From positions 165,139-229,138 of the forward strand of contig JACQUX010000038.1 in assembly GCA_016210045.1 (NCBI GenBank): a stretch of DNA of 64,000 nt, in the 5' to 3' direction. Below, piece after piece: positions 2,707 to 42,331 of the stretch. Origin of the DNA: Deltaproteobacteria bacterium (GTDB taxonomy: Bacteria > UBA10199 > GCA-002796325 > JACPFF01). The position numbers were made by a program, and so were the translations under genes. Numbering within the stretch: the first letter of the stretch is position 1; each line of letters opens with the position of its first letter. The notes beneath the pieces are model-generated. The model was not told the DNA's origin and ran no database searches. It saw only the letters and a program-made list of their open reading frames with translations.

Positions 2707-4446
2707 CTACGCAGCGGGTTCTTGGGCTGGGGCCGGCTCTGTCGGGGCCTCGGCCTCAGCTGCTGCCTTGGCCGCCGCAGCGGCTGCGGCGATGCTGTCG
2801 TAGTCGCGGAGCGCGGCGCCCACTAATGTCGGATTTTCTGATTCCAGCGCGACCAACGCCGCGCGATAGCGCCCTTCCGCGTGCCACGGTGTGCGGAGGA
2901 CAGCGATGCTGCTGAGTCCCAACAACATCTGCTGTGCGTTGGCGAAGGCCGTCGGCTGTGTTGCGGCCAACTCGCGCTGCGCGGTCAGCAACGGCACGAC
3001 GACGGCGTCGAAAAATGCGGACAAGCGGTCGGGGCGTGTCTCGATCTCGGCGATCTCTTCCTCGATGGCCGCGCGCTGTTCGGCAACGGCGAGCACGAGT
3101 GTATCGGGATCCCGAGCGACGAAGAGGCCAACGAGGCGAAGAAACGCGGCTCTCTCTGTTTCACCCATTGTGTTCAGTGCGGCGAGTGCCGCTTGGCGGT
3201 CCAATACGAGAGTGCGTTGTGCGCGAAGGATTTCCAATTGTGCGGTGTCGCGGGCCTGCTCTTCGCCCAAGTGTAGCAAATATACGCCGCTGCTGGCCCC
3301 TCCACGGGCGTAAAAGGTTACATCCGCATTGCCGAGCTCAGCGTAGCGCAACCATGCCGGGAGTGGTGTTTCGAGATACGGCGCATCTATGTTGAGTCGC
3401 ACGCAGCTCGCGGCATCAGCGCTGGTCTTGACGTGGGCGATGACGTGCTCCAGTCGTGCATTGCACAGCGCCTTCACGCGCGCCAAGGCCGCTTGTACCG
3501 CGGCGAGATACGATTCGCGATCCGCCTCGAGCACGCGCTGCGCCTCGGGCGTCAAGAATCGCAGTTTTCCTGCAATAATTTGGTAGGCCTCGCGGAGCCT
3601 TCCCAAGATTGCGACGTCCACGTCCGGGTCCGTCGATGCCGCGTCACCCAACTGGTCAAGCCGCTCCAGGCCTTGCAGGCCGCGTGCAAAGAAGTGGAGC
3701 GCAATCTCCTGCGGCCTTTTTTCATTGGCCGCGCCGTGTGCGTAACATGTTGCCGCGACAAAAGCGTCGCCAAGGAATTTCACTGCGGACGTTGGTTCCT
3801 CCAACAAAACCGCCAGCCGGGCGCCGAGCTCCATCACGTCGATCACTGCCGGTCCTTTGGATTTTTTATCATCCTGCACGAACCACATGGCGCTGCGAAC
3901 CGCGTCGGTATCTGCGTCGCTTAGTGGCAAGCCGGCGTTCTCCAAGCGATCCGCCAGACGCTGTGCGTTGGCGAGCGTGGCATTCACCGCGCTGCCGCGA
4001 TGCCTTGCCCGATAATGTTCGGCGACCACGGCCGGAACCTCAGCCGCCGTGGCATACTGTCCCGGCGAGAGACGTCGTGCGATGGCTTGCTGCCATCCGG
4101 GGAGTGCCGCGAAGGTCTCGCGCGGCATCCAGACCAAGCGGCGATAGAGTTGGACCGCCTTGAGTGCGCCCAACGAAGCTCCGAGACTGAGCACCGCCAG
4201 TGTAATGCCTCCGACCGTCGCGGTTGTGGCCACGACGTCGGTCGGTTCTCCGTTGCCTCCTTCCCCGAGCTTCGTCGAGAAGACGCCGAGCGGTCCCATC
4301 GGCAATGCGGCCATGCCGAATGTGGCCCGTTCCAATCCCTCTTTGACTCGCGCTCCAAGCGTGCGGCGTTGCGCCAGCGCTATTGCCTCGCCCGTGGGAT
4401 GTGAAATCGCTGTGGTCGTCCGACGCCTCAGTTGCACACGCTGCAT
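2707..4446 (-). CDS. Hypothetical single-pass membrane protein with a large Ala/Leu/Arg-rich helical domain
   Basis: 579 aa ORF with one hydrophobic segment (VGGITLAVLSLGASLGAL) near the N-terminus. A GAGGAG Shine-Dalgarno lies 5 nt upstream of the ATG, which sits 17 nt after the TAA stop of the Hint-domain gene. I recognise no family. Confidence 0.55.
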   Translation of the reverse strand: MQRVQLRRRTTTAISHPTGEAIALAQRRTLGARVKEGLERATFGMAALPMGPLGVFSTKLGEGGNGEPTDVVATTATVGGITLAVLSLGASLGALKAVQLYRRLVWMPRETFAALPGWQQAIARRLSPGQYATAAEVPAVVAEHYRARHRGSAVNATLANAQRLADRLENAGLPLSDADTDAVRSAMWFVQDDKKSKGPAVIDVMELGARLAVLLEEPTSAVKFLGDAFVAATCYAHGAANEKRPQEIALHFFARGLQGLERLDQLGDAASTDPDVDVAILGRLREAYQIIAGKLRFLTPEAQRVLEADRESYLAAVQAALARVKALCNARLEHVIAHVKTSADAASCVRLNIDAPYLETPLPAWLRYAELGNADVTFYARGGASSGVYLLHLGEEQARDTAQLEILRAQRTLVLDRQAALAALNTMGETERAAFLRLVGLFVARDPDTLVLAVAEQRAAIEEEIAEIETRPDRLSAFFDAVVVPLLTAQRELAATQPTAFANAQQMLLGLSSIAVLRTPWHAEGRYRAALVALESENPTLVGAALRDYDSIAAAAAAAKAAAEAEAPTEPAPAQEPAA

Positions 4447-4462
4447 AGTGACTCCTCGATCA

Positions 4463-5935
4463 TTACAATTTCATGTTATGGGCCACGAACCAATGTTGCC
4501 CGCCGTCGGATGACACCAAATAGTTATGGATCGCTCCAGTCCCGAAGCCGAGATTGAAGAGTGCGAACGTCCCTTCCATGCTCATCGAGCCCGCCATCGA
4601 CAGCGCATAGGCCGATCCGTCCGGATTGATGAGCGTATCGCCTTCCTGCAATGCGCCCGCGTGGATCCAGCGTTCCGTGCCGTGGCGTTGTACGCGCAAT
4701 CGATGGATCGACGTCGTCTCGAGCGTGCCGAGTGCGCCGTTCGCGTCGGTCACGGCGAGCGAGAGCAGATCGGACGGAACGACGCCGTGCTGCATCAGTT
4801 GGCGCGGCGTCTGATACACGACGGCGCGCGTGTCCGGATCGAATCCCGCTACGGCCGGCAGTGGCTGTCCCGCAGCCTCCAACGCGGCGAGTGCGGCAAA
4901 CGAAATCGTGCCGCCGTCCGCCGTGCGCAGCACCGCGCGTTCGGTGAAACAGCCGCCGTAGCCCTTGTTGCAACTCCCGACGTCGAAGCTGACTTCCGTG
5001 TCGGGATAGATGCCAAACAGCCACGCGGCGTCGTTGAATTCGACGTCGATCGTGCCTTCACCCTCGCACGCCGCCCAGTCGCCATCGCTCTGCTGTGTGC
5101 GGCATTCAATGGTCTCGACAGACGCGAGGATCTCTGCCGTCTCAGTCCACTGGGTCGCAGCCGCAGCGGCCAGCGGCCGTAGGGCCTCCGGTACACCGAG
5201 CGCGAAGTACGTCATTTGTTTGATCTCGTCGCACCCCTGGCCCAACACCAAATCGCCCGGATCGCGCAATCCGCCTAAGCGCACATAAATGGACAGCCCG
5301 CGCGCGGAGAGATCGGCCAAATAGTCTTTCGTGATGGCCGGGGCCTGCGCGTACGGATGGCTCGCGGGATAATAACCGCGCGGATCGATCCCGCTGCGCA
5401 CCGAATGATCGAATGTGGCTTGGTCGACTTGCAGGACGTCTGCATCGCCGTCGCCCGGAACGCTGTTGAGGACCCACTTTCTTGCATACTCGCTGACCCG
5501 TGCGACCTCCAGAGACCAATCGAGCAACTCGGTGACCGCGCGCTGTTGCCCGATTGTGATGGGTCCGCCAGTGAGCGGTACAGCCGCGTAGCCGATCAGT
5601 CCGCGCAGATGGGCGCGATCGAATCGTTGCGGTGTCTCGGACGGCGTGGGAAGCAGGAAGTCGTCTTCACTGAGCATGCTGAACGGCGACACACGATCGA
5701 AGCGTTTGAGGATCGCGACGGCCTCGGGCGAGCAAAATATCGCGCTGGCGCTGCGTGAGATGGAGGTGAACGCGTCGACCGCCTCGCCACTGCCGGTCAT
5801 ATCCCAAATGGGATGTACTGCAGCACGGATGCACGGTGTCGGCGCCGCGGCCGTCGCCGCATTTGCCGTCGTTCCTTCCACTTCATATCCCGTCACCAGT
5901 TGCGCCAACGCTGTCCCGAGTCCAATTCCAACCAT
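4463..5935 (-). CDS. Protein with C-terminal Hint (Hedgehog/intein-like, bacterial intein-like BIL) domain; N-terminal region of unknown function
   Basis: The C-terminal ~160 aa run CFTERAVLRTADGGTISFAALAALEAAG...TSIHRLRV...WIHAGALQEGDTLINPDGS...FVAHN, then MKL and stop. That gives the Cys1 block A, the TxxH block B and the terminal HN of Hint/intein domains. I placed the start at ATG 5935 because a GGAGG Shine-Dalgarno lies 5 nt upstream. The ORF-track GTG start at 5983 would lie inside the conserved promoter-like motif. Confidence 0.6.
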   Translation of the reverse strand: MVGIGLGTALAQLVTGYEVEGTTANAATAAAPTPCIRAAVHPIWDMTGSGEAVDAFTSISRSASAIFCSPEAVAILKRFDRVSPFSMLSEDDFLLPTPSETPQRFDRAHLRGLIGYAAVPLTGGPITIGQQRAVTELLDWSLEVARVSEYARKWVLNSVPGDGDADVLQVDQATFDHSVRSGIDPRGYYPASHPYAQAPAITKDYLADLSARGLSIYVRLGGLRDPGDLVLGQGCDEIKQMTYFALGVPEALRPLAAAAATQWTETAEILASVETIECRTQQSDGDWAACEGEGTIDVEFNDAAWLFGIYPDTEVSFDVGSCNKGYGGCFTERAVLRTADGGTISFAALAALEAAGQPLPAVAGFDPDTRAVVYQTPRQLMQHGVVPSDLLSLAVTDANGALGTLETTSIHRLRVQRHGTERWIHAGALQEGDTLINPDGSAYALSMAGSMSMEGTFALFNLGFGTGAIHNYLVSSDGGQHWFVAHNMKL

Positions 5936-5968: not shown

Positions 5969-5997
5969 GTATATCGGCGTCACGAAAAAAGAGTTGC
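5969..5997 (-). promoter_or_regulatory. ECF-sigma-type promoter motif, copy A (GCAAC-N16-CGATATAC) upstream of the Hint-domain gene
   Basis: On the coding strand the sequence is AGCAACtcttttttcgtgacgcCGATATACagcg, lying 34-62 nt upstream of ATG 5935. The same architecture is found at 8402-8430 and 14529-14558. Confidence 0.5.
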
Positions 5998-6145
5998 TAA
6001 GAAAATGCCTGGCCGTTTCCGGGAGTCATTAGGGAACTCATGCCTGGCTTGAATACTCCGCAATCGACCCGCAGGGCTAGCGCCACGGGCGCGCTGATGG
6101 GGAGGCTCCAAATCCGCGAACGAGGACACGCGCACGCCGTCGTGC

Positions 6146-8380
6146 TTATGGCATGTTGCCTGCCGGGGGTGGGGGACAGTCTGGCATGTGCGGTTCCGCC
6201 GGGATATCGGCGGCGCAACGGAAGCCGATGAACTTGGAGCGCTGCGCGGGGTGCCACCGGCGGTCGGTGACATCGCGGATATCCGGGACCGTTTGATCGA
6301 CGGCGATCGCGTCGTCACACTCATTCAGCGGATCGGAGTCTGGATTGATATGATACGCATTGCCAACTACGACGGGTAGTCTGTCTCCGTCGAGTTCCGC
6401 GGTCAGTTCATAGACCGGACCGACCAGGTCGTGGATCCCCAACGGATTGGCCGGTGCGGTGGCGACGGACAACGGCCGCTTGGTGCCGATCGCCATTTCG
6501 TCGGCGCGTAGTTCGCCGCTGCGGGTGCCGAACTGGTTGTTCCCGCCGGCGGTCGCCAGATATTGCCATTCGGCTAGTGTGAGGAGCCGTTTGCCGGCGG
6601 AAAAGGCGAAGAAGAGGGCCTCCCAGAGGGTCACTTTGACGACCGGCTGATTGGGAGCGCCATGAGATTGGGGCAGCCGCCGTTGCGTGGCGACGGGGAC
6701 AATTCGCTCCACCTGCATCGCGTACGCATGGAAACGATGCTCGCTGCGATTCTGCCGAATCCACGCCTCCGCGTCGTTTTCGTTGCGGAAGCCGCCGACC
6801 AGCACGGAGTAGCGCCCGTCGATCTGACCGAAGACCGCGAAGGGCCTCGTGGCATAACGGCCGCAATGGGCATCGAAGGCCTCGTTCGTGACCACATGGG
6901 GATCACAGTAGAAGGGCGCGATGGCGACCACATGGAGGCTGCCGTCAACACCGCGGCTCGTGAAGCCCGTCATTCCCGCCACTTTGACCATTCCGATGAA
7001 ATCCCCGGTGCCATATTCCATGACCGTGTTCGGCGCGGCCAGTTGCAGCGGGTTCGGTGAGGGCGCGAAAGGCGTGCGCCGCACACGTGGAGCGGCCTTC
7101 CCAACCGCGCGCTGGGCTGCGGCCTTGGCCTGTCGTTCTTCCTGTGCCCGTGCAGTGCGCAACGTGTCGATTGCGGCCATCACCAACGCGCGCCGTTGCC
7201 GACGGCGGATCTGCCACCAGTGCGCCGATTCCGGCAGTAGATCCAACAGGGCCGCGAGGGCGGGGACCGCGTCGGTGGCGGCCAGAGTCGAGACATGGCG
7301 CACCGCGGCGGCGACTGTGGACCATCGGTTACGCACGGTGCCGGCGTCGAGGCCCCGCAGGAAGGCCACTTGATGTTGGGTCGTGACCTGCTGCTCCGCT
7401 TGGCGGATTAATTGGGCCTGCTCGCCGGCGCTGCGTTGATCGCGGCCGGCCAAACGGCGGAGATTGACGAGGGCAATCTGCTGGCCCTGCGTGAGGAGTC
7501 CAAATACGGTGAAGGGCTCATCGACCACGGTCCGACGAGTGGCTTCATCCAGTCCATAGAGGATCTCGCGGACGGCCAGTTCGCGCTCACGATCGGGCAG
7601 GACCTCCAACAGCGTAATCGAGAGGATGTAGAGCAGTAGATCGCTGGCGGCATTCAACTGGTGGGTGGGGTACTCCACGACGGTGTGGACCAGTCGGGAG
7701 ACCAGCCCGCGCAACAGGTCGCGCACAAATTCATACCGGCCGTCGACGGCGCGGATCACGTCGCCGCAATCGACGGCCAACATCTGACAGAATTGTTGCC
7801 ATGGCAGTTCGTCGCCCGCAAAGCGTTCCGGAAAGTCGCGCGGAAACATCATACGCAGGATGACCTCGCTTCGGTCCTCGGCCGCGGCGAGGTTCACGAC
7901 TCGACGCAAGTGATCGAAGTCCAGCAGGGAGCGCTCGGCAATCCATAACAGGCCATGATGGGGCGCGGCCGCCACCGGGCCCGAGGCCGTGGTCGCTAAA
8001 GCGGTTGACGGGCTGGTGGCATCAGTGACCGGGACTGCAGTCTCATTCGCGACAGCAGGTTCAGCGCTGGTCGGTGTAGGTGGCTGGGTCTCTCCGCTCA
8101 TACTGAAATGCGGCACTGCGGCGAAGCGAGTGCTGGCGGGTTCGGACGGTGACAGCGCGTGTGCAAAGGTTACTGGTCGATCCGGGACATGCGAAAAGGT
8201 GTCGCCGTTGGCACAGCGGAGGAGTGGCGCAGTGGCTGCATCCGGAGCGATCGGGTGGTGAGGCCGATGGGGAGCGGTCGGTGGTTGTGTTCGCGTCCGT
8301 AACGAAGGCCGAGTGGTCGCGCTAGTCCGCCCCCCCCCGTCTCCCCAGCGTCGCATGTGTGTCGTGCGTCTCCAACTCAT
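6146..8380 (-). CDS. Protein with unknown N-terminal region and C-terminal FGE/SUMF1-type (formylglycine-generating enzyme family) domain
   Basis: The C-terminal ~300 aa contain MVKVAGMTGFTSRGVDGSLHVVAIAPFYCDPHVVTNEAFDAHCG, ...VTLWEALFFAFSAGKRLLTLAEWQYLATAG..., ...NPLGIHDLVGPVYELTAE... and ...SKFIGFRCA, the hallmark blocks of FGE-sulfatase domains. The N-terminal ~430 aa are helical with no recognisable family. An RBS (GAGGAGAG) precedes the ATG at 8380. Confidence 0.65.
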   Translation of the reverse strand: MSWRRTTHMRRWGDGGGRTSATTRPSLRTRTQPPTAPHRPHHPIAPDAATAPLLRCANGDTFSHVPDRPVTFAHALSPSEPASTRFAAVPHFSMSGETQPPTPTSAEPAVANETAVPVTDATSPSTALATTASGPVAAAPHHGLLWIAERSLLDFDHLRRVVNLAAAEDRSEVILRMMFPRDFPERFAGDELPWQQFCQMLAVDCGDVIRAVDGRYEFVRDLLRGLVSRLVHTVVEYPTHQLNAASDLLLYILSITLLEVLPDRERELAVREILYGLDEATRRTVVDEPFTVFGLLTQGQQIALVNLRRLAGRDQRSAGEQAQLIRQAEQQVTTQHQVAFLRGLDAGTVRNRWSTVAAAVRHVSTLAATDAVPALAALLDLLPESAHWWQIRRRQRRALVMAAIDTLRTARAQEERQAKAAAQRAVGKAAPRVRRTPFAPSPNPLQLAAPNTVMEYGTGDFIGMVKVAGMTGFTSRGVDGSLHVVAIAPFYCDPHVVTNEAFDAHCGRYATRPFAVFGQIDGRYSVLVGGFRNENDAEAWIRQNRSEHRFHAYAMQVERIVPVATQRRLPQSHGAPNQPVVKVTLWEALFFAFSAGKRLLTLAEWQYLATAGGNNQFGTRSGELRADEMAIGTKRPLSVATAPANPLGIHDLVGPVYELTAELDGDRLPVVVGNAYHINPDSDPLNECDDAIAVDQTVPDIRDVTDRRWHPAQRSKFIGFRCAADIPAEPHMPDCPPPPAGNMP

Positions 8381-8401
8381 AACGTGGCTCTCCTCTTGTT
8401 C

Positions 8402-8430
8402 CGTGTATATCGGCCCTGCGAAAAAAAAGT
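8402..8430 (-). promoter_or_regulatory. ECF-sigma-type promoter motif, copy B (GCAAC-N16-CGATATAC) upstream of the FGE-domain gene
   Basis: On the coding strand the sequence is CCAGCAACttttttttcgcagggcCGATATACacgg, then ~20 nt containing GAGGAG, then ATG 8380. Confidence 0.5.
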
Positions 8431-8465
8431 TGCTGGATCAATGTGGGTAACTGGGAAACGTGCGT

Positions 8466-8930
8466 TTACGCCATCCACCCGCGCACCAGTGTGGCGAGCG
8501 CGTCCGGGGTGGGGTAGGTCCAGGGCCACACGCTCATCTGGTGCGCGAGCGTGCCGTCCGGTGTCACGAGCGCGACGCCGCGTTTGGGTCTCAGCCAGGA
8601 AGAAAGGCCGAGCGCGCGGAGCAGCACGGCCTGAGGATCGGCGATCAAGTCGAATGGCAGTCGATGCGTCTCGCGAAACTTCGTGTGTTGCTCCACAGTG
8701 CCGGTATTGATTCCCCACCACAGGCACGGCACGGCCTGCAGTGCCGCCCACATGTCGCGATAGGTGCAGAATTGTTTGGTGCATACCGGCGAGAAGTCGC
8801 CCGGATATGACAGAAACACCGTGTTCCGATCTGCGGCCAATATAGCCCGCACCGCTAACGCGCCACGTGTGGTTTCGAACGTCTGATCCAATATGTCCTG
8901 CAACGGAGCCACTGCTTGCGCCTTTCGCAC
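8466..8930 (-). CDS. bcp: Thioredoxin-dependent peroxiredoxin (Bcp/AhpC-TSA family)
   Basis: Contains ...VFLSYPGDFSPVCTKQFC..., which matches the peroxiredoxin FTPVCT active-site motif with peroxidatic Cys. The length of 154 aa fits. Confidence 0.8.
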   Translation of the reverse strand: MRKAQAVAPLQDILDQTFETTRGALAVRAILAADRNTVFLSYPGDFSPVCTKQFCTYRDMWAALQAVPCLWWGINTGTVEQHTKFRETHRLPFDLIADPQAVLLRALGLSSWLRPKRGVALVTPDGTLAHQMSVWPWTYPTPDALATLVRGWMA

Positions 8931-8954
8931 ATTCTACGCTAAGGCGAAAGTCCC

Positions 8955-10676
8955 ATGCCACTCGATCGGTCACAAATTGCGGCGCGGCTGATGGAATTCG
9001 CGGCGCTGTTGGAATTGACGGGCGCCAATCCGTTCCGCGTCCGCGCGCTCGCCAACGGCGCGCGCGTGCTCGGCGGGCTGGCCTCGTTCGAGCGACTCTT
9101 GGCCACAGCGCAGCTCACGAGCATCAAAGGGATCGGAGAGGGGCTGGCGGAACATGTGCAAGAACTTGCGACCACCGGGACGTTGCAGGAGTGCGACGCG
9201 CTCGCCAAGACGATTCCGCCCGGGGTGGTAGAGATGCTCGATATCCCCGGCGTCGGGCCGAAGACGGCGCGGCGGCTGTGGCAAGAGTTGCAGCTGACGA
9301 CGGTCGACGCGTTGGCCCAAGCGTGTGGCACACATCGGCTCGCCGCCGTCGCCGGAATGGGCGAGAAGACGGAGCAAAAGATCCTGCACGGGATCGACTA
9401 TCTGCGCACGCAGCACGGACGCCATTTGTATCCGGGCGTCGCGTTGGTCGCATATGAACTGGCGGCCGCGTTGACGCGGAGTCGCGTAGTGCAGCGGATC
9501 GAAGTGGCCGGGAGTATTCGGCGCCACAACGAGATCGTGAAAGATATCGACTTGGTGGCGAGTACGCGCGACGCGGAACGGTTGATGGCCGCGTTCGTCG
9601 CGCATCCGCTGGTCGGTCGGGTCGTGCAACACGGGCCGACAATATCGAGCGTGCAATTACGTCCCGGATTTTCCGCCGATCTGCGTTGTGTGACCGAAAC
9701 GGAATTTCCGTACGCGTTGCTCCACTTGACCGGCAGCAAGGCGCACAACGTGGCATTGCGCGCGCGCGCGCAGCAGATGGGGATGCAATTGAACGAATAT
9801 GGATTATTCAAGAGCGACGGGACTGTCGAATCACTCGTGCCGTGTGTGGCGGAAGACGAAATCTATGCCGCGTTGCAGCTCGCATTCATCCCGCCGGAAC
9901 TGCGCGAGGACTGCGGCGAGATCGCGGACGCAGCGAACGGCGCGTTGCCGGATCTGCTGACGTACGACGACTTGCAAGGCGTGTTTCATTGTCACACCAC
10001 ATACAGCGACGGGCGAGCGACGTTGGCCGAGATGGCGGACGCGGCGGCCGAACGCGGATTTCGGTACCTCGGCGTGACGGATCACAGTCAATCGGTGACC
10101 TACGCACGCGGTTTAGAACCGGCGCGGGTGCGCGAGCAGTGGCGCGAGATTGAACGGCTCAATACCAACGGCAAGATCCGGATCTACAAAGGGACGGAAG
10201 TCGATATCCTGAAAGACGGCGCGCTCGATTATCCGGATGAATTATTGCGCGGCTTCGATTTCGTGATCGCGTCCGTTCACACCCACTTCACACTCACGCG
10301 CGACGAAATGACCGCGCGCGTAATCCGCGCACTGCGCCATCCGGCGGTGCGGGTGTTGGGACATCCGACCGGACGGCTGCTGTTGTCGCGAGAACCGTTT
10401 GCGGTCGATCTCGAAGCCGTGTTGCGCGTGGCGGGGGAGGAGGGCGTCGTGGTGGAAACGAATTGCAATCCGCAGCGCGCGGAACTCGATTGGCGGCTGG
10501 CGCGCACGGCCCAAAGTTGCGGCGTGCGCACGATGATCTCGCCCGACGCGCATCACGTGGACGGACTCGACTACCTCCGCTTCGGCGTCGGGATCGCGCG
10601 CAAAGGCGGCTGGACGCGGGCGCACGTCGTGAATGCGTGGACGCCGCGCGCGGTGGAACGATGGCTCGGACAATGA
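8955..10676 (+). CDS. polX: DNA polymerase X family protein with C-terminal PHP phosphoesterase domain
   Basis: N-terminal helix-hairpin-helix and Pol-beta-like regions (...DIPGVGPKTARRL...). C-terminal PHP domain motifs (HCHTTYSDGRATLAEMA..., ...VTDHSQS...). 573 aa. Confidence 0.85.
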   Translation: MPLDRSQIAARLMEFAALLELTGANPFRVRALANGARVLGGLASFERLLATAQLTSIKGIGEGLAEHVQELATTGTLQECDALAKTIPPGVVEMLDIPGVGPKTARRLWQELQLTTVDALAQACGTHRLAAVAGMGEKTEQKILHGIDYLRTQHGRHLYPGVALVAYELAAALTRSRVVQRIEVAGSIRRHNEIVKDIDLVASTRDAERLMAAFVAHPLVGRVVQHGPTISSVQLRPGFSADLRCVTETEFPYALLHLTGSKAHNVALRARAQQMGMQLNEYGLFKSDGTVESLVPCVAEDEIYAALQLAFIPPELREDCGEIADAANGALPDLLTYDDLQGVFHCHTTYSDGRATLAEMADAAAERGFRYLGVTDHSQSVTYARGLEPARVREQWREIERLNTNGKIRIYKGTEVDILKDGALDYPDELLRGFDFVIASVHTHFTLTRDEMTARVIRALRHPAVRVLGHPTGRLLLSREPFAVDLEAVLRVAGEEGVVVETNCNPQRAELDWRLARTAQSCGVRTMISPDAHHVDGLDYLRFGVGIARKGGWTRAHVVNAWTPRAVERWLGQ

Positions 10677-10680
10677 CGGT

Positions 10681-10715
10681 CCAGCCACTAGCCACCAGTC
10701 ACCAGCCACCAACAA
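10681..10715. repeat. CCAGYCA heptamer tandem array (locus 1 of 4)
   Basis: The sequence ccagccactagccaccagtcaccagccaccaac lies at the polX/nth junction. Arrays of the same heptamer occur at 21661-21745, 46851-46960 and 49291-49380. Confidence 0.6.
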
Positions 10716-10732
10716 GGCGAGCGCCCCGCATC

Positions 10733-11335
10733 ATGTCGTTATTGCGCGCCGCCTATCCCTCGATCCACGTCGCGCTGACCCACGACAACCCGCTGCAGCT
10801 GTTAATCGCGACCATTCTTTCCGCGCAGTGTACCGACGAACGCGTCAATCAAGTCACGCCGCGACTCTTTGCGCGCTATGTCACGGCCGCCGACTTCGCG
10901 ACAGCCGCGACGGCGGAACTCGAAACGCTGATTCGGTCCACCGGTTTTTTCCGCAGCAAGGCGCGAAATATTATCGGTTGTTGTCGTGGCATCATGGAGC
11001 GATTCAATGGCGAAGTGCCGCCCCGACTCGACGACTTAGTCACGTTGCCCGGCGTGGGTCGCAAGACCGCCAACGTGGTCCTCGGGGCCTGTTGGGGGGT
11101 TCCGGGCGTCGTGGTCGATACGCATGTCAAACGAATCTCGAATCTTTTGGGCCTCACGCAATACGACGATCCGGAGAAAATTGAACGGGACTTGATGGCC
11201 TTGTTGCCACAATCCGACTGGAACGATTTCAGCCTCGCGCTCATTTGGCACGGCCGCCGCGTTTGCATCGCCCGCCGCCCCCGCTGCGCGGAATGCGTCT
11301 TGAGCGTGCTGTGCCCGAGCGCGCGCAGGAAGTAA
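10733..11335 (+). CDS. nth: Endonuclease III (DNA glycosylase/AP lyase)
   Basis: Contains ...LLIATILSAQCTDERVN..., the HhH-GPD motif LPGVGRKTANVVL, and a C-terminal 4Fe-4S cluster loop CxxxxxxCxxCxxxxxC (CIARRPRCAECVLSVLC). The ORF-track N-terminal extension overlapping polX is not supported. An alternative ATG lies at 10661. Confidence 0.85.
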   Translation: MSLLRAAYPSIHVALTHDNPLQLLIATILSAQCTDERVNQVTPRLFARYVTAADFATAATAELETLIRSTGFFRSKARNIIGCCRGIMERFNGEVPPRLDDLVTLPGVGRKTANVVLGACWGVPGVVVDTHVKRISNLLGLTQYDDPEKIERDLMALLPQSDWNDFSLALIWHGRRVCIARRPRCAECVLSVLCPSARRK

Positions 11336-11341
11336 CTTTCG

Positions 11342-12532
11342 TTACTCCAGATATTGGAAAAGTTCGGCCCATGGAATGGCCAAAATTTGTCCGATGCGTT
11401 GTGCTCGCGCCACTTGGCACACAAGATACGCAGCGTGCGGCCGGTACTCTTTGCAAAAATGCGCCAGGCCTTTTGTGTCCGCGAGTGTGGGCCGTGCAGT
11501 TGCTTTGACTTCGATAGCAATGCGCTGTTGACCGGTCTCCAACACCATATCGACTTCATCCCCCTGCTTATGCCGCCAATAAAAGAGTTGCGTTCGGGGG
11601 GAGCGCCGCGCCATCAATTCCAGGACCATCAAATGCTCGAACAACACGCCTTGTTGGAGGGGGAGGAGTCCGGGACCATGCCCGATCTGCGCTGCGGCGT
11701 TGCGGACCCCGAGGTCGAAGAAGTAATACTTCGCCGTGCGGAACACGGCATCGCGCACTTGGCCGAAGGCGGGTAGGCGTTGGATAATCAGCGAATCTTC
11801 AAGGATTTGAAAATACTCCCGGATCGTGGTGTGGCTCAGTCCGATGCGCCCGCCGATCTTCGAGAAATTGGGCGCCCCACCCGATTCTAGGGCAGCCAAA
11901 CGAAGAAATTGCGTAAAGCGCGGCACATTGCGAACCGCTGCCTCGGCGCGAATCTCTTCCTCCAAATAGAGGTGTGTATAGGCATTGAGATTGCCTTCGC
12001 GCTGCGTGAAGTCCGTTTGTGAAAGAATTCCGGGCAACATGCCATAGCGCAAGATTTCTCCCAGCCGAGAGAGGGGGAACCCAGTTTCTTGCCATGTCAA
12101 CGGAGGCAGGAAGTGGAGTTGCACTCGGCCGGGGAGCCAGTTCGTGCGCAAACGTTTCATCTTCCGAGCCGACGAGCCAGTGGCGGCGAGAACGATGCGG
12201 CGATGATCCAGGAGAAATTGTAGCGGATCCATGACGGCAGGGATTTTCTGGATCTCGTCGATGTAGAGGAAGAGCGGCGTGCGGGAACGTTTCGCTTCGA
12301 CCTCGCGCACGATGCACTCGGGGTCCTGTTCGATCGCTTCGCGTTGGGAGGGAAGTTGGAAATAATAGGTGAGACACTGCGCGGCGGGAAGCTGCGCGAA
12401 CAGGGCCTCCAACAGCGTGGATTTTCCCGTCTGACGGGGGCCGAAGAGGAGAAACGACTGGCGGCGATCGAGTAGTTGCTGCAAGCGCGAGACGGCAGAT
12501 CGAGGGAAAGTAGATGTTTCAAAATTGTTCAT
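11342..12532 (-). CDS. AAA+ ATPase with DUF4143-type C-terminal domain
   Basis: Walker A (LLFGPRQTGKSTLL) and Walker B (LFLYIDEIQ) motifs, with a C-terminal region typical of the widespread ATPase/DUF4143 family. 396 aa. Confidence 0.75.
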   Translation of the reverse strand: MNNFETSTFPRSAVSRLQQLLDRRQSFLLFGPRQTGKSTLLEALFAQLPAAQCLTYYFQLPSQREAIEQDPECIVREVEAKRSRTPLFLYIDEIQKIPAVMDPLQFLLDHRRIVLAATGSSARKMKRLRTNWLPGRVQLHFLPPLTWQETGFPLSRLGEILRYGMLPGILSQTDFTQREGNLNAYTHLYLEEEIRAEAAVRNVPRFTQFLRLAALESGGAPNFSKIGGRIGLSHTTIREYFQILEDSLIIQRLPAFGQVRDAVFRTAKYYFFDLGVRNAAAQIGHGPGLLPLQQGVLFEHLMVLELMARRSPRTQLFYWRHKQGDEVDMVLETGQQRIAIEVKATARPTLADTKGLAHFCKEYRPHAAYLVCQVARAQRIGQILAIPWAELFQYLE

Positions 12533-12674
12533 ATATTGAAAGTACCACTTTCAATTCGAATTCGCTAGCAAAACATCAGGCGCGCATTGGCGGACGTGAT
12601 TGCAGAAACCATTGACGTCGTGGGCTCAGGCTGCGTAGGATCATGCCTCACTTCGCAGGGAGGAGAACGTTTGT

Positions 12675-12908
12675 ATGGCGAATCGAGAAGATCGGGTCAA
12701 AGAGAACGTCGCGGGGCTGTTTTTTGTCGACTCGCAGTGCATCGATTGCAATTTGTGTCGCGACACGGCGCCGGCAAATTTCAAGCAACACGAAGCGGGT
12801 GGCTATTCGTTCGTGTATAAACAACCGGAAACCGACGAAGAGCGTCAACAATGCCAAGAAGCCCTCGAAGCGTGCCCCGTTGAAGCGATTGGCAGTAATG
12901 GGACGTAG
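12675..12908 (+). CDS. Ferredoxin (small 4Fe-4S protein)
   Basis: 77 aa with CIDCNLC...CP cysteine pattern, a single [4Fe-4S]-type ferredoxin signature. Confidence 0.7.
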   Translation: MANREDRVKENVAGLFFVDSQCIDCNLCRDTAPANFKQHEAGGYSFVYKQPETDEERQQCQEALEACPVEAIGSNGT

Positions 12909-12957
12909 TGTGTCGCACACAGTAAATGAGCAGATCATCCAGAATAAGATAGACTGA

Positions 12958-13112
12958 GTCCCAGCTCCGGGAGGGGAGTGCGGGGGGCCTGCGGGCCGTT
13001 CGCCTCGTGTTACGGCGCTCGGCTCACTGAGACCTCGCTCGGTCGAGCTTCAACACCATAGTACTCCCTCGCTCAGACTCGCCCGCAGGCCCCCCGCACT
13101 CCCATCCCGGGA
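12958..13112 (+). repeat. ~155 bp structured repeat element, copy 1 (conserved 95 bp core flanked by ~30 bp complementary terminal stems)
   Basis: Sequence ccgggaggggagtgcggggggcctgcgggc–core–gcccgcaggccccccgcactcccatcccgg. Its core (ggccgttcgcctcg.g.tacggcgctcggct.actgagacctcgctcggtcg.gcttcaacaccatagt.ctccctcgctcagactcgcccgc) is near-identical to 59688-59835. The terminal stems differ between copies but stay complementary. Confidence 0.7.
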
Positions 13113-13483
13113 CCATCGTTTCAATCCGGATAGTCAACCAATCAGATTGAATCATGTCCTTCGTGCTTCGGGGGGCAAGAGAGAAGGCCGTGCAGTGTTC
13201 GACTCCTCATAACCGGTTTGTGTCTCGATAAACATTGATCTTAAGAAAGAGGCTACCCAGGCACCGCTGTCTTATGGCCGGAGTCCAGGCCGGCGGGCGC
13301 CAGGGGCTCTCGCAGCCGTTTTCCCCTTGCGTAATCTAACGACGAAAACGGCGAGGGCGAGCGCGCGGCGGCTCGATGCCGCCGCGATAGCGTACCCTGG
13401 CGCCCGCCGGCCCGGGGCTCCGGCCCTTCGTGTGCCAGCAATGCGTGGACAGATGATCGTAAAGGCATACGTATGGCGTGCTG

Positions 13484-14497
13484 TTATCTCCGCTTCCCCT
13501 TCGCAACCGCCCACTCCACGAGCAGGTCTTGGAACGCGGGGTCGTTCTTGAGCGGGAAAAAGTCGTCGCCGATTTGGACCCACGTCTTGAGTTGGTGGCT
13601 GTTGTCGAGTGGTTGCGCTTGTTGCAGGGTCGCGATCGTTTTTGCCACATCGCCCGTCGCCGCGTAATAGCTGATTAGGGCCGTGAGGCCGCCGAATTCT
13701 TTGGTCACTTCGTCGAGTTTGACCTTTGCCACGCGTCGTTCGGCGTCGCGGGTTTTCCCCATCGTGGCGGCCAGCGCCGCAGTGAGCAGATCCGCTTCGT
13801 ATTGGTGAGCGCCGCGCGTTGCGCGTCGGGCCTTGCTGTAGGCTTGGGTTGCTTTGCCGACGAACCGCTTGTTCATCGTCCCGTGATTTTTCAGAAAGAG
13901 GATCAGGTTGTGATACGCGACGCCGAGGTTGAGGTAGTAATGGTGCTCGTCGCCCGGCGCCGGCTTCACGCCCGCTTGGGCCTCGCCGATCCGCTCCATT
14001 TCCCGAATCAGCATCATGCCGCGTACGGAGGCTGGTTCCAAATAAAGACGCCGTACGGCCGCAGCGATCTCGCCGTCGGCCAGCAGCGTGACGACAGCGC
14101 CGGGAATTGCGGTCTGCAGCGGCATGTTTCGCGGTTTTTCGAGCAGCGCAGGGAGTGGACGCTTGCCACGGGATGCGGCGGGGCGCGCTTTGTCCTTCGC
14201 CGCGTGACTTTTCTTCTTCGTATCCGTCTTGGCGGCACTCTTACTCTTGGCCTCTGTCTTGGTGGACTTCCCCTTCGCGGCGGGAGTGCCTTTCTTGGTC
14301 GGAGGCTGCGGCGTCTTCGCCGGCGCCGTTTTCGGTGCAGTGCCGGCCTTTCGGCCTGATTGGACCCAGGTCGGATTAGCGGCCGCGCCGACGAACGGGG
14401 CCGCGAGCGCGACGATGAGGAACAGGGTCACCAAACTGCCGAACGGGCGTAGAATCTGCATGGGAGGTCGTATAGGGAAGAGTGCTCGCGCTGTCAA
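13484..14497 (-). CDS. Hypothetical secreted protein with Lys/Ala/Pro/Thr-rich low-complexity region and helical C-terminal domain
   Basis: N-terminal signal-like segment (MQILRPFGSLVTLFLIVALAAPFVGAAA), then a KTAPAKTPQPPTKKGTPAAKGKSTKTEAKSK... histone-H1-like tract. The true start is possibly at 14461. Confidence 0.5.
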   Translation of the reverse strand: MTARALFPIRPPMQILRPFGSLVTLFLIVALAAPFVGAAANPTWVQSGRKAGTAPKTAPAKTPQPPTKKGTPAAKGKSTKTEAKSKSAAKTDTKKKSHAAKDKARPAASRGKRPLPALLEKPRNMPLQTAIPGAVVTLLADGEIAAAVRRLYLEPASVRGMMLIREMERIGEAQAGVKPAPGDEHHYYLNLGVAYHNLILFLKNHGTMNKRFVGKATQAYSKARRATRGAHQYEADLLTAALAATMGKTRDAERRVAKVKLDEVTKEFGGLTALISYYAATGDVAKTIATLQQAQPLDNSHQLKTWVQIGDDFFPLKNDPAFQDLLVEWAVAKGKRR

Positions 14498-14528
14498 ATC
14501 GACTGACAGCCATCATGCGTTTTCGCTA

Positions 14529-14558
14529 GCAACTTTTTTTCCACAATACCGATACTAC
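14529..14558 (+). promoter_or_regulatory. ECF-sigma-type promoter motif, copy C (GCAAC-N16-CGATACTAC) upstream of the HATPase-domain gene
   Basis: The sequence is GCAACtttttttccacaatacCGATACTAC, about 50 nt upstream of ATG 14609. It has the same spacing (N16) and the same flanking AGCAAC/T-run as copies A and B. Confidence 0.45.
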
Positions 14559-14608: not shown

Positions 14609-16012
14609 ATGCGACGGATTGCGAAGGCCCGACCCCCCGTAATATGCACCCAGCGTGTGCGAAGCATCGCACGCCGGACCGGAATCAACGTTCGTCTTCC
14701 CCTGCCACAACCCCATGGGGGACAACCCCTCCACCCCGTCTTGTCGATCGGCGTCCATCGGGGCGGATATCGTCTGGTGCAAGTCGGCTTTGGCGGCGCG
14801 GCCGTGCCCGTACTCCCGTGGCAATACGAGACCTTGGCCATGCGGTTGGCGCGGCATTTTCATCATAATGATGTCGCGCCCGATCCCTGTGCGTTGGAAT
14901 TGGCGGCGACGGGTTTTGGAGATATGCCAGCGACTGAAAGTGTCTCGGTCGCGGCAGCGTGGGTGTTGAGCGGATCTGGAATGTTTGTTCGTGGTGGTGT
15001 CCCGCGTGGTCCGCTGCGCGTGGCATTGGCGACGCCAAACGACGCAGAGGCGGGGGGCGCGCAGATCAGTCACGGGCGCGCGTCTGCTGGCGTTGCAACG
15101 GCCGTTGCGAGCGCTCCGCCGAGCGAAGCGGACGGGATCGCGGCGGTCGATGCGGTGAAGCGGCGCTACGAATGTGAATTACGGCCGCGGATTGAAACGC
15201 TGCTGCAGATGACGGCGCAGCTCGTGGATGGGTCGGTGCCGTTGGTCATCCCGTGGCTCCGAGCGGCCATTGAGGCCATTGATCGGTTGAAGGGCGAGTT
15301 ACATGACATTGCGAAGCGTTTTTCTGCGTATCCCACCCCTTCGACGTATGCCCACATCGTGCGGCACAATACGCTTGCGCCGCTCGGCACGTCCCTCATG
15401 ATGTTGCAGCTTAAGATGGAGGTTGAGACCCAGCATCTCCCGTGGGTCGCATGGCTCCTCCCGGCATTCGGCGCCACGCCGCGGTTGTTGAAACACTTGG
15501 CAGATGCGGCGATGGGGCCGGTGCGCGTCGAGGCCGTGCGGCGGGGGATCAAGGAGGAGCCGGTCCGGTTGGAGCACGTGCAATTGGCCGTGACCATTTC
15601 AGACGCGCAGGCCGAGCAACTGTTGGAGGTGTTCCGCAATTTGGCGACCAATGGAATCGTCCACGGATGGGAGGGACGGGCGGATGAATTCGATCTGACT
15701 GCGGCGGAGGCGCAGCGCCGCTTCGTGCGGCTGAGCTTCAAGGAGGGTCAGTTAGTTTACGAAGATAACGGGCAGGGGATTCCCCCGGAAGTGATCGACG
15801 CCGTGGCGTTGGCCGATTGGACGGCGATTGCGCAGCGTTCGCAGACGCGTGGTACTGGCAGCGGTCTTGGCCTGGAACATTTTGTGCGCACCATGGATTT
15901 ACTTGGCTGGTCGTGGAGCTTCGGACCACGATCCGGTGGCGGGACGCGGATCGTCTGTACCCCAAATCCGGAAGATCTCGCCCATCGCCCGGCATATTCC
16001 CCCGGTTCATAA
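14609..16012 (+). CDS. Histidine-kinase-like ATPase (HATPase_c) domain protein with no obvious sensor or H-box; N-terminal region unknown
   Basis: C-terminal motifs match the N box (...NLATNGIVHG...), G1 (EDNGQGIP) and G2 (GTGSGLGLEHF) of GHKL ATPases. There are no transmembrane segments. The start codon is uncertain because no good Shine-Dalgarno precedes it. Confidence 0.6.
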   Translation: MRRIAKARPPVICTQRVRSIARRTGINVRLPLPQPHGGQPLHPVLSIGVHRGGYRLVQVGFGGAAVPVLPWQYETLAMRLARHFHHNDVAPDPCALELAATGFGDMPATESVSVAAAWVLSGSGMFVRGGVPRGPLRVALATPNDAEAGGAQISHGRASAGVATAVASAPPSEADGIAAVDAVKRRYECELRPRIETLLQMTAQLVDGSVPLVIPWLRAAIEAIDRLKGELHDIAKRFSAYPTPSTYAHIVRHNTLAPLGTSLMMLQLKMEVETQHLPWVAWLLPAFGATPRLLKHLADAAMGPVRVEAVRRGIKEEPVRLEHVQLAVTISDAQAEQLLEVFRNLATNGIVHGWEGRADEFDLTAAEAQRRFVRLSFKEGQLVYEDNGQGIPPEVIDAVALADWTAIAQRSQTRGTGSGLGLEHFVRTMDLLGWSWSFGPRSGGGTRIVCTPNPEDLAHRPAYSPGS

Positions 16013-31508: not shown

Positions 31509-32294
31509 TTACAACAATCCCGCAGCCATCAGCAGGCCGATGACCACGAGCAGCAGCCCCGTGAGCCGCTGGATGGTCGTCATCGTGATCTTGTGGAGGA
31601 ATTGCATCCCGAGCAGGACGCCGCAAACCGCAGCGATGCTGCCGGTCAGGATCATCCGGCCTTCAGCGGTGACAGGGAGCGTCCGCCAGTGGAATGTAGA
31701 CAGCATCGTCCCATACGTCAGCAACCGGATCGCATCCACGGCCAGGCCGATCACCGCGTTGGTCCCGATGAACGCCTGCGGTGTCAGGTCGACTTTCGTG
31801 AGAAACGCGGAACGTAAGGCGCCTTGATGGCCGGAGAGACCGCCGAAAAAGCCGGAGAGCATTCCGCCGAGCGGCAAATATTTGCGGTTGAAGGAGAGGT
31901 GTTTGAATCCGGGGTGCAACTCCAGCACTGCAAAGCCCAAGATGAGTACGCCTAAGACGAATGACAGCGGACTGACGTCGCGTGCGCCGAAACATTGGTA
32001 CGAAAACCATGGAGGGAGATGCGCCAGTCGGACCAGCAATACCGCTCCCACATAGGCCGTCGCAATGGCCGCAAGCCCGAAGCGCCAGACGATTTTGAAA
32101 TCGGCCAGTCGGCCTGCGACCAGCACCTTGAGTACATTATTAGCGCCATGGACGATCGCGGTCGCGGCGACGGCCATATCGGTGGGGAGGAAGATCGCGA
32201 ACACGGGCAACAGAATGGTGCCGAGACCGAATCCGGAAAAGAGGGAAAGAAACGATGCCCCCAACGAAACCACGGCTATGAGTACGAGATCCAT
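31509..32294 (-). CDS. Sulfite exporter TauE/SafE family (DUF81) membrane protein
   Basis: 261 aa, 7-8 TM helices with the duplicated GxGGG-like motifs of the TauE/SafE family. Confidence 0.75.
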   Translation of the reverse strand: MDLVLIAVVSLGASFLSLFSGFGLGTILLPVFAIFLPTDMAVAATAIVHGANNVLKVLVAGRLADFKIVWRFGLAAIATAYVGAVLLVRLAHLPPWFSYQCFGARDVSPLSFVLGVLILGFAVLELHPGFKHLSFNRKYLPLGGMLSGFFGGLSGHQGALRSAFLTKVDLTPQAFIGTNAVIGLAVDAIRLLTYGTMLSTFHWRTLPVTAEGRMILTGSIAAVCGVLLGMQFLHKITMTTIQRLTGLLLVVIGLLMAAGLL

Positions 32295-32359: not shown

Positions 32360-33520
32360 TTAGATCTCGGGGAGAAATCCGAGCCGATCGAGCGTTTCGA
32401 CTACGCTGTCGAGTGAAGGCGCTGCAGCTGCGGCGGCTCTTGGGGCCGGGCGTTTTTGGACGATTCGTAGCGGATTGCGAGCGATCGCCGTCATGAGCGC
32501 TGGGCTCCACGGGGCTTGCGTCAGATGGTAACGCCGGAGGGCCGCCTTCGTGAGCGCCATACGGGCTTTGGGTGGATCGAGATGCCAATCGACCAGTAAA
32601 TGTTGCCACGCCGGCGGGACTGCGAGTTTTTGTTCCATCAGTTGCGTCGCATGTTCCACGCCCTTCACGAGGACTTCCACGGTGATCCACGCATCGCTGA
32701 TCCGATCCACCAAGTCCGCACAATAGCCAGCCAGGCCTCCGTAGTCGGCGTCACATTCGGTCGCGACGCGCTGCAAGTCCGCTAGCGGCGGGAAACAGGC
32801 GGCAAAGCGATCGAGCTTGTGTCGCAGCGTCGTCCGGAATCGGATTTCGTCGATGAGATTCGCAAAGGCCAGCGCAGGATCGCGGTCGGCAAGGAGCTCG
32901 ATTTCGAGCGTCACGGGATCGCGGCTGGTCATCCGTGCCAGCCCTAACGCGAAATCTCGTTCTTCGGGTGGCGTCTCGGCGACGTGATAGCGAATGACGA
33001 GAGGCTCCCGAGGATCTGGAGCCATTTGCCGCAGGGCCGAGGCATAGATGCAGCGGCGCGGATCCGAGGTATTCGAGAGTGGCGCGATCAGGTCCAATGG
33101 GCTGAGTTTGCCGGCCAACGCTGCCGTGTTGCGGTGTTGCGTGGCACGGCGTGCGCGTTCCGCGCTACGACTGGGATGCGGTGGTCGTTCCGCGCGCCGA
33201 GGCGCCGCATCTTCTGCCGGGGGCACGCGGCTCTCGAAGAGGCGCCGTGCGAGCAAAACGGTGCCGGGGACGAAGCGCGCGACGCGCGCATGAGCCGTGG
33301 GCGCGCCGGGTGCGCGGAGTGCCACGGGCGCTGCGCGTTGCATCGGCTTTGGTATTAATGGTGTCGGGGCGCCGGGAAATACGTGCAATTTCCCGCCAAT
33401 GGCAGTGCCGGTGCCCGGGCGCAACTTGCCGCCCCCGCCCATGCGGCCCCGAAACGGTCCAAAAGGTCCTCCCCCGGGTCCCCGGGGCGGTCGCGTACCC
33501 ATCATAAGAGGTATCGGCAA
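32360..33520 (-). CDS. Hypothetical protein; the Gly/Pro-rich N-terminus may be a start-codon over-extension
   Basis: Long ORF with coding-like C-terminal two-thirds and no recognisable family. Divergent from the two-component operon. Confidence 0.4.
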   Translation of the reverse strand: MPIPLMMGTRPPRGPGGGPFGPFRGRMGGGGKLRPGTGTAIGGKLHVFPGAPTPLIPKPMQRAAPVALRAPGAPTAHARVARFVPGTVLLARRLFESRVPPAEDAAPRRAERPPHPSRSAERARRATQHRNTAALAGKLSPLDLIAPLSNTSDPRRCIYASALRQMAPDPREPLVIRYHVAETPPEERDFALGLARMTSRDPVTLEIELLADRDPALAFANLIDEIRFRTTLRHKLDRFAACFPPLADLQRVATECDADYGGLAGYCADLVDRISDAWITVEVLVKGVEHATQLMEQKLAVPPAWQHLLVDWHLDPPKARMALTKAALRRYHLTQAPWSPALMTAIARNPLRIVQKRPAPRAAAAAAPSLDSVVETLDRLGFLPEI

Positions 33521-41618: not shown

Positions 41619-42056
41619 TCACAGCGGATTAATGACGTGCAGCTTCGGGATGCGGCGGAATTCCGTGTCGCGTGTGAAGATCGTGTCGATGCCGTGTTCG
41701 CGCATGATCGCCGCAATCCGGCAGTCGTGGACAAAACTTCCGCGCACGGCGCCGACGTCCTGCAAGATCGCTTGCAGCGTCGTCCAATATCCTTCGCCTT
41801 CGGTGAGGAGGCGCAATGTCGGGAGCGCCAACAATGACGTCACGTTGGCGCACGCCTCCTGAAGAGAGAAGAGGGGCGGCGCGCCGCCGAACGACTGGGT
41901 CACGAAGGCGAGATATTCGCCGATGTTGATCCATGTGATGGCGTATGAAGATCGGTCCTGTGCCACTTGATCCAGGAATGCACGGGCCGCCCGATGCTCC
42001 GGCGCGGCCTCACTCGAGGCGTAAATGAGGATGTTCGTGTCGATCAGGCCGTGCAC
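41619..42056 (-). CDS. vapC: Type II toxin-antitoxin system toxin, PIN domain (VapC family)
   Basis: The N-terminus MHGLIDTNILIY is the PIN-domain motif with acidic residues. 145 aa. Confidence 0.85.
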   Translation of the reverse strand: MHGLIDTNILIYASSEAAPEHRAARAFLDQVAQDRSSYAITWINIGEYLAFVTQSFGGAPPLFSLQEACANVTSLLALPTLRLLTEGEGYWTTLQAILQDVGAVRGSFVHDCRIAAIMREHGIDTIFTRDTEFRRIPKLHVINPL

Positions 42057-42307
42057 GGCAGTGGTCGCTCCAAATCAGGGAGATACGAAGTGCGATCCGC
42101 AGGGTCGATGCCGGCCGGAAGCGGACGTTTGCTCGTGTGCCACGTGGCCAGCCGGGCGGCCGCCGTATGCCGCCGCTCCGTGCGCGCCTCCAAGCCGCCG
42201 CGAATGAGTTCCACCACAAGGTGTTTCAATCGTCGGCCCTCGCTCACGCACAGCCGTTTGAGGGTGCGCAACAACTGGTCGTCCATTTCGATGGTGGTTC
42301 GATGCAT
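42044..42307 (-). CDS. vapB: Type II antitoxin (VapB-like)
   Basis: Small ORF (MHRTTIEMDDQLLRTLKR...) overlapping the vapC start, the typical arrangement. Confidence 0.7.
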   Translation of the reverse strand: MHRTTIEMDDQLLRTLKRLCVSEGRRLKHLVVELIRGGLEARTERRHTAAARLATWHTSKRPLPAGIDPADRTSYLPDLERPLPCTA

Positions 42308-42331
42308 CGTCAAAAATGATAAAATGTTCCA

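Follow-up and report, generated by a model that had tools for sequence, protein, structure and literature searches.

The 64-kb stretch of DNA analyzed here (the window) lies on contig JACQUX010000038.1 of a Deltaproteobacteria bacterium (assembly GCA_016210045.1, positions 165,139 to 229,138 of the forward strand) and has a G+C content of 61-63%; positions given below are those of the window. It carries several copies of a two-block promoter motif, GCAAC-N16-CGATA, in front of genes from obscure families. The comparisons described below indicate that this motif is a genuine promoter class of related uncultured bacteria. Exact matches occur three times in the window, at 5972-5997 and 8408-8433 on the minus strand and at 14529-14554 on the plus strand, against a mean of 0.19 in shuffled windows, and none of 100 shuffles reached three matches. 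The longer pattern AGCAACTYTTTTT-N8-CCGATA found the same three sites only, even with three mismatches allowed (0.02 expected). These counts agree with the original prediction, which had proposed a shared architecture at three upstream regions, 20 to 60 nucleotides (nt) before the start codons; the distances from CCGATA to the start codons are 36, 27 and 54 nt.

The first promoter, P1 (5969-5998, minus strand), is located in the gap between target genes 2 and 1. Its -35 element AGCAAC (5998-5993) is followed by the T-tract TCTTTTTT and by the -10 octamer GCCGATAT (5978-5971), and the motif position puts a putative transcription start near 5963. P2 occupies 8405-8434 on the minus strand, not 8402-8430 as had been proposed, within an 85-nt gap between an AhpC/TSA-like gene and target gene 2; it consists of AGCAAC (8434-8429), a run of eight T and again GCCGATAT (8414-8407), with a predicted start near 8399. 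P3 (14528-14558, plus strand) has AGCAAC (14528-14533), seven T and the octamer ACCGATAC (14548-14555), and its transcription would start near 14563. The downstream block had been written as CGATAyaC; the CGATA core is present at all three sites, while the terminal C was read out of register at the third, where the sequence is CGATACTA. By listing all CCGATA occurrences we found a fourth, weaker copy that the count of three had missed. This site, P4 (33511-33538, minus strand), reads CACAAC-TTTT-N11-GCCGATAC with the same 15-nt gap, the -35 element being at 33538-33533 and the -10 octamer at 33518-33511; the CACAAC variant is also present in another locus (L086). The three strong sites share a T7-type run, interrupted by one C in P1, and P4 has only TTTT.

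The four sites were scored with a weight matrix trained solely on sites of other genomes. P3, P1, P2 and P4 obtained 38.3, 36.4, 34.4 and 18.8 bits, respectively, the next best position in the window reached 4.6 bits, and the best value across 30 random windows of the same composition was 6.7 bits.

Target gene 1 (4463-5935, minus strand; 490 amino acids [aa]) starts with an ATG at 5935 behind a GGAGG ribosome-binding site, and the Logan gene call gives the identical 490 aa. Its N-terminal part of about 328 aa belongs to no known family. The C-terminus contains Hint/BIL-type motifs, namely, CFTERAVL at C329, T408-x-x-H411 and VAHN at H486-N487, and C329, TxxH and HN are invariant across three homologues (alignment with P0004 and P0005; 44-64% identity). 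The Pfam PT-HINT model matches with an E value of 0.005 and 17.5 bits, under its cut-off of 27.7; a PDB profile search with gene 1 returned no Hint-family or intein chain, and an AlphaFold2 model built from the three-sequence alignment had a mean pLDDT (predicted local distance difference test) of 36.6, too low to be of use. Because the Hint/BIL-like module ends merely 2-3 residues after HN, the arrangement suggests an autoprocessing reaction that would release the N-terminal part. Gene 1b (2707-4446, minus strand; 579 aa, no known domain) follows after a 16-nt gap, matches no Pfam or NCBIfam family and is probably cotranscribed with gene 1. This orphan pair is kept in the same arrangement in two other loci (L200 and L201).

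Target gene 2 (6146-8380, minus strand; 744 aa, as in the NCBI product) has a C-terminal FGE-sulfatase/SUMF1-like domain at residues 477-723 (Pfam PF03781, E = 6e-19) and an N-terminal half without a known family; an orthologue search at E <= 1e-10 returned none. Target gene 3 (14609-16012, plus strand; 467 aa) ends in a HATPase_c domain (PF02518, E = 5e-10), its N-terminal portion of about 330 aa has no known family, and no HisKA or sensor domain is recognizable. The NCBI product MBI4238987.1 has only 423 aa; its start, at 14741, is 44 codons further downstream than the ATG at 14609. Since this ATG and the first eight codons are kept in a 57%-identical orthologue (L199), 14609 is probably the true start and the deposited one too short. 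Target gene 4 (32360-33505, minus strand; 381 aa) has a Gly/Pro/Arg-rich N-terminus and no known domain. Two ATGs, at 33505 and 33502, follow CCGATA by 6 and 9 nt and coincide with the predicted transcription start; the P4 mRNA would accordingly have no leader. A TauE/SafE exporter gene (31509-32294, minus strand) is situated 65 nt downstream and may be cotranscribed; a TauE gene follows the motif in a metagenome contig (L140) too. PDB sequence and profile searches with the target proteins were uninformative, and all their NCBIfam hits were below threshold. For annotation, the motif would fix the start codons, with 14609 for gene 3 and a leaderless 33505 or 33502 for gene 4.

To follow the motif beyond the window, three loci retrieved by protein homology are of value, as their recovery does not involve the motif and is hence not circular. 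Upstream of the orthologue of gene 3 (L199, 57% aa identity) the sequence reads AGCAAC-N15-CCGATACTAC with a diverged spacer, and upstream of the two homologues of gene 1 it reads AGCAAC-N15-TCGATAT (L200, 60% identity) and AGCAAC-N15-ACGATAC (L201, 45% identity). The last of these loci has two or three more sites within 15.6 kb. In addition, the motif precedes a gene for a 106-aa PilZ protein in nine contigs; these sites were retrieved by the pattern, which makes their upstream alignment circular for the conserved blocks, and only the recurrence of the gene family counts. We considered a repeat or mobile element and rejected it, since the shared stretch is only about 35 bp long and lies between unrelated flanking sequences. 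A known RNA element was rejected as well, as Rfam finds nothing in the window.

A scan of one genome per species (185,579 species) with the pattern AGCAACTNTTTTT-N8-CCGATA, which has 18 specified bases, yielded 88 loci, of which 57 belong to a few uncultured metagenome-assembled genomes (MAGs) and 31 are scattered over unrelated phyla. The richest MAGs are JAUSII01 (13 hits), JAHFSU01 (8 hits) and MGRG01, CAZLRI01 ("Pseudobdellovibrionaceae") and SBBF01 (5 hits each), joined by several NC_groundwater "Deltaproteobacteria" and by two labeled "Polyangia" and "Myxococcota"; their G+C content ranges from 36 to 69%. JACPFF01, DASXOU01 and DATNAQ01 also count among the motif-rich MAGs. We refer to the motif-bearing bacteria as the clade, and their taxonomy is that of the record titles (Deltaproteobacteria, Myxococcota, Polyangia or Pseudobdellovibrionaceae). 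The 31 loci in unrelated phyla behave as chance matches. At positions left free by the pattern, clade sites and chance hits differ clearly, with T-28 in 82% versus 9%, G-15 in 80% versus 32% and A-8 in 64% versus 41%. In the clade, 50 of 58 matches are found at most 150 nt upstream of an open reading frame (ORF) in the same orientation and 2 are intragenic, while among the chance hits 3/31 lie upstream of such an ORF and 22/31 are intragenic. When G-15 was included in the pattern, a scan of metagenomes provided 108 further loci with the same properties. In related uncultured bacteria, the motif stands upstream of genes at about 140 distinct sites. No match to the exact pattern was found in the named Bdellovibrio genomes of the species scan, and none in viral contigs. 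The original prediction would have been undermined by a motif that is abundant without positional bias; what we found is abundance together with a strong bias. Its further expectation of a small regulon did not hold, since the site density in related genomes, extrapolated from the flanks of known sites, is about 1 per 30 kb.

The consensus of 172 sites is (A/T)AGCAACTTTTTTT-N7-GCCGATAA, or, written in octamers, GCAACTTT-N11-GCCGATAA. The -35 block comprises (A/T)AGCAAC and about seven T, and it is followed by 7-8 variable bases and then by the -10 octamer. The matrix holds about 43 bits of information, a value inflated by the choice of sites by pattern. The searchable literature contains no description of this combination of GCAAC, T7 run and GCCGATAA. 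For an estimate independent of the downstream block, we anchored a search on GCAACTTTTT and excluded the retrieval pattern; 26 of the 31 new sites have a -10 element at the fixed distance, with the consensus GCCGATAA, and in these 26 sites CGA is invariant (26/26), G-15 occurs in 22 and C-14 in 20. The spacing is rigid, as nearly all sites show zero shift. Many low-GC sites also carry AAAAAAGTT directly 5' of AGCAAC, giving an A-rich tract at about -46 to -38, which we take to resemble a proximal UP-element.

The start codons fall into two classes. At 28 of the 140 distinct sites, a long ORF begins with an ATG 3-11 nt after CCGATA, and P4 belongs to this class; with a transcription start about 8 nt after CCGATA, such a position implies leaderless mRNAs. 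Sites of this kind include L046, L052, L012, L066, L089, L084, L087, L096, L128, L158 and L163. In most others the start codon lies 18-47 nt after CCGATA, and many of them have a motif resembling a ribosome-binding site upstream of it. As a separate observation, three loci contain divergent promoter pairs (L072, about 1841-1900; L117, about 12490-12551; L050, about 160-222), in which back-to-back -35 elements (AAAGTTGC-N4-6-AGCAACT) each have their own GCCGA-type -10 on opposite strands. The inverted -35 copy alone is seen in L023, and many low-GC sites show the near-palindrome AAAAAAGTT-AGC-AACTTTTTT in place of a divergent pair.

Most proteins encoded downstream of the motif match no Pfam family, and the window targets are equally obscure. 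Recurrent or notable families are PilZ, TPR, GGDEF, adenylate cyclase/CHASE2, Ser/Thr kinase, PP2C, Fic, FGE-sulfatase, TauE and peptidase M15. In three loci of 66-68% G+C (L048, L110 and L134), the gene that directly follows the motif encodes a sheath protein of the contractile-injection or phage type, and its start codon lies 85 nt after CCGATA; L048 is from a MAG labeled Polyangia. A second family of this kind is eCIS_core (DUF4157), which was found in eight loci (L099, L100, L127, L136, L154, L159, L184 and L023, the last from a MAG labeled Polyangia) on soil contigs of 67-74% G+C. These proteins begin with MMGYHDLSAAGG, the full-length member has 903 aa, and every copy has a nearly identical promoter with the ATG 3-7 nt after CCGATA, a leaderless start. 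An envelope or stress function had been named as typical for such a regulon; none of the findings points there.

The best explanation of these findings is that one alternative sigma factor, conserved across the uncultured group, reads the motif. By comparing the consensus with known promoter classes, we found that it resembles that of sigma-28 (FliA/SigD/WhiG), TAAAGTTT-N11-GCCGATAA, in the same register. The sigma-28 -10 consensus GCCGATAA spans -15 to -8 and its GC constitutes an extended -10 (PMC12784957); the octamer is identical to that of the clade, extended GC included, and CGA is invariant in both. The gap between the octamers is 11 bp in both (TAAA-N15-GCCGATAA for FliA), and both promoters have a T-run behind the -35 core and AA at -32/-31. 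A FliA matrix derived from 22 Escherichia coli FliA chromatin immunoprecipitation (ChIP)-seq sites (PMC4203485) aligned with the clade matrix in a single register, with TAAAG over GCAAC and a score of 14.0, and all other offsets gave 3.0 or less. Even the tolerated -10 variants agree. Those known from E. coli, GACGATAA (fliC), GTCGATAA, GCCGAAAA (tsr) and GCCGACAT (aer), are found in clade sites too, GCCGACA- is among the variants common to sigma-28 and clade promoters, and the same variants occur in the promoters of the gene 1 orthologues (L200 and L201). Moreover, both systems have a PilZ-domain gene among their targets (ycgR in E. coli, the 106-aa PilZ gene in the clade). The promoters differ in the -35 core, GCAAC in the clade versus TAAAG, and in the T-run, which is about 7 nt in the clade versus 3 nt.

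These similarities make it probable that the motif serves a large, non-flagellar regulon driven by a sigma factor that belongs to the sigma-28 family or stands on the group 3/group 4 border. In such a factor, region 2 would read CGATAA, region 3 would read the extended GC, and region 4 would have shifted its specificity from TAAAG to GCAAC. Transcription starting about 8 nt after CCGATA would leave 5' leaders of about 20-45 nt at P1-P3 and none at P4. Four transcription units of the window would be under its control, namely, gene 2, genes 1 and 1b together, gene 3, and gene 4, the last possibly including the TauE gene. In each related genome the motif would precede genes numbering in the order of 100, mostly lineage-specific orphans, alongside signaling proteins, a contractile-injection sheath operon and a family with an eCIS-core domain. 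FliA-like groups with a weak sigma-3 domain are basal in the tree of extracytoplasmic function (ECF) sigma factors (Casas-Pastor et al., PMC7826278), and a hybrid promoter is plausible because of this position.

Several results weigh against a sigma-28-type factor. Three of the five positions of GCAAC deviate from TAAAG; only the two A's match, with TTT following, so that the clade sites lack the TAAAG(T)TT element of sigma-28 promoters. No TAAA-type -35 partner of CCGATA was found in 367 kb of clade loci. Flagellar and chemotaxis genes are the usual sigma-28 targets, and none (Flagellin, MCP, Che) is among the Pfam matches listed for 122 distinct downstream proteins; a flagellar regulon was rejected on this ground. 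Sigma, anti-sigma and FlgM families are likewise missing among these listed matches. Pfam detected no sigma gene among the roughly 50 genes of the window, and tblastn and phmmer searches of the window and about 1.5 Mb of loci gave no credible hit to E. coli FliA or RpoE, the probes being approximate sequences and the sensitivity low. Finally, two features point to the ECF (group 4) sigma factors. GCAAC equals the -35 of several of them, such as sigma-M and sigma-V of Bacillus subtilis (TGCAAC), and one ECF factor, SigD of Mycobacterium abscessus, is known to use CGAT as its -10 behind a 16-nt spacer (PMC13537577).

An ECF factor had in fact been the original prediction; in such a factor, region 4 would recognize GCAAC and region 2 CGAT, and the regulon would be under its control. 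The part of it that stands is a shared alternative-sigma promoter with a fixed spacer, near start codons and with an ECF-like -35. An AAC-containing -35 followed by a T-rich stretch is what ECF promoters have, and AGCAAC with T7 is present at the three strong sites of the window and at the clade sites. B. subtilis sigma-M, sigma-V and sigma-W recognize TGCAAC or TGAAAC-N16/17-CGTx, and share with the clade, as SigD does, the AAC -35, the T-rich sequence next to it, a spacer of about 16 nt and a -10 that starts with CG. The M. abscessus SigD motif, GTAACA/G-N16-CGAT, comes from 72 ChIP sites (PMC13537577); SigD of Corynebacterium glutamicum recognizes GTAACA/G-N17-18-GAT, and sigma-E targets of Streptomyces coelicolor include TGCAAC -35 elements. 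The clade has 16 nt between GCAAC and CGATA. Many ECF sigma factors are encoded in Myxococcota-like genomes. However, the -10 octamer, the spacing and the tolerated variants of the full consensus fit sigma-28. The conserved -10 element of the clade is 8 bp long and contains CGAT rather than CGTC, CGTA or CGTT, with GC conserved upstream of CGAT, and all 8 of its 8 positions match the sigma-28 consensus, including the extended GC that sigma-28 reads with region 3. ECF sigma factors have no region 3. The spacing, too, is exactly that of the E. coli FliA sites and one base shorter than that of SigD. As had been noted, no ECF sigma or anti-sigma gene is visible in the window, and no sigma/anti-sigma operon was found there or after the 122 distinct sites among the matches listed, an absence of little weight since sampling predicts about one. 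Taken together, we regard control by an ECF factor as a reasonable but less likely reading.

Another member of the sigma-70 family that has not been described, for example a different group 3 sigma, could in principle have arrived at the sigma-28 likeness by convergence. It is in keeping with this idea that the combination of elements is absent from the searchable literature and that the motif-rich genomes are all uncultured MAGs. Convergence would have to reproduce the octamer of FliA sites exactly, together with their spacing and their tolerated variants, which leaves such a factor improbable. The least convincing proposal, to which we give hardly any credence, is an operator of a dimeric transcription factor over a sigma-70-type promoter, with AAAAAAGTT-AGC-AACTTTTTT as the palindrome and GATAAT inside GCCGATAAT as the -10: in many low-GC sites AAAAAAGTT does form an inverted repeat with AACTTTTTT, and GATAAT matches TATAAT at 5 of 6 positions, but the upstream arm is lacking at the window sites and other high-GC sites, the full inverted copies (L072, L117 and L050) are part of a second promoter that diverges from the first and has a -10 of its own, T-7 occurs in only 36% of sites, sigma-70 offers no explanation for G-15, C-14 and C-13, no TTGACA-like element is present, and a generic scan for sigma-70 promoters and terminators finds nothing at the sites.

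For a regulon under a sigma-28-like factor, the closest functional parallel would be the global FliA attack-phase program of Bdellovibrio rather than a regulon for flagella or envelope stress. There, 92 of the 140 promoters active in the attack phase are of the FliA type (TTAAG-N16-CCGATA), and the majority of these are non-flagellar (PMC3627812; PMC12622784). The attack-phase regulon of Bdellovibrio bacteriovorus (Karunker et al. 2013, PMC3627812) shares with the clade the CCGATA -10, the large and mostly non-flagellar content and the many uncharacterized proteins. Bdellovibrio is also a lineage of the former Deltaproteobacteria, and one motif-rich MAG is labeled Pseudobdellovibrionaceae. The two systems differ in the -35 sequence and, by one base, in the stated spacing, and the clade is known from sequence alone. 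FliA-family sigma factors that control non-flagellar genes, as proposed for the clade, have precedents in Streptomyces WhiG and Chlamydia sigma-28, which, unlike the clade, retain TAAA-type -35 elements and small regulons. WhiG is a FliA-family sigma factor that governs a non-motility program in an organism without flagella (PMC12871210), and Chlamydia sigma-28 likewise has a non-motility role (cited in PMC3627812).

By combining regulon content with this parallel, an "attack" or effector program may be proposed for the clade. More specifically, and only tentatively, the factor may be a sigma-28-derived or group 3/group 4 border sigma with an ECF-like -35 specificity (GCAAC plus T-tract) that acts as a global non-flagellar regulator. 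Its near-consensus promoters would number in the order of 100 per genome, many giving leaderless mRNAs, and its targets would be lineage-specific orphan, cyclic di-GMP, kinase and contractile-injection proteins in uncultured Myxococcota- and Bdellovibrionota-like bacteria, as a counterpart of the Bdellovibrio attack-phase switch. What is new here is a promoter class of uncultured lineages that resembles sigma-28 promoters but has a -35 of its own. If our reading is correct, the motif would be a high-specificity marker of about 40 bits for co-regulated, mostly orphan genes in groundwater and soil metagenome bacteria, and it would provide a first handle on a major regulatory program of bacteria known only from metagenomes. 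It would also represent a natural combination of a sigma-28-type -10 with an ECF-type -35, which bears on the evolution of promoter specificity at the border of group 3 and group 4, and a possible orthogonal sigma/promoter pair for synthetic biology.

The window contains further features of note. A PolX-family DNA polymerase gene with a PHP domain (8955-10676, plus strand) is divergent from the AhpC/TSA-like gene that precedes P2. At 13342-13432 (plus strand) ARAGORN called a tRNA-Ser(CGA) without a recognizable T-loop; Rfam reports no tRNA there even at E <= 1, and the call, which falls in GC-rich intergenic DNA, is probably spurious. None of the PIN-domain, STAND-type and RCC1-repeat genes between 41619 and 49283 carries the motif. 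The PIN-domain gene (41619-42313, minus strand) has a small overlapping upstream ORF and likely forms a toxin-antitoxin pair with it. It adjoins genes for a 1,141-aa adenylate-cyclase/AAA_16 STAND-type protein (42332-45757, plus strand) and a 775-aa RCC1-repeat protein (46956-49283, minus strand).

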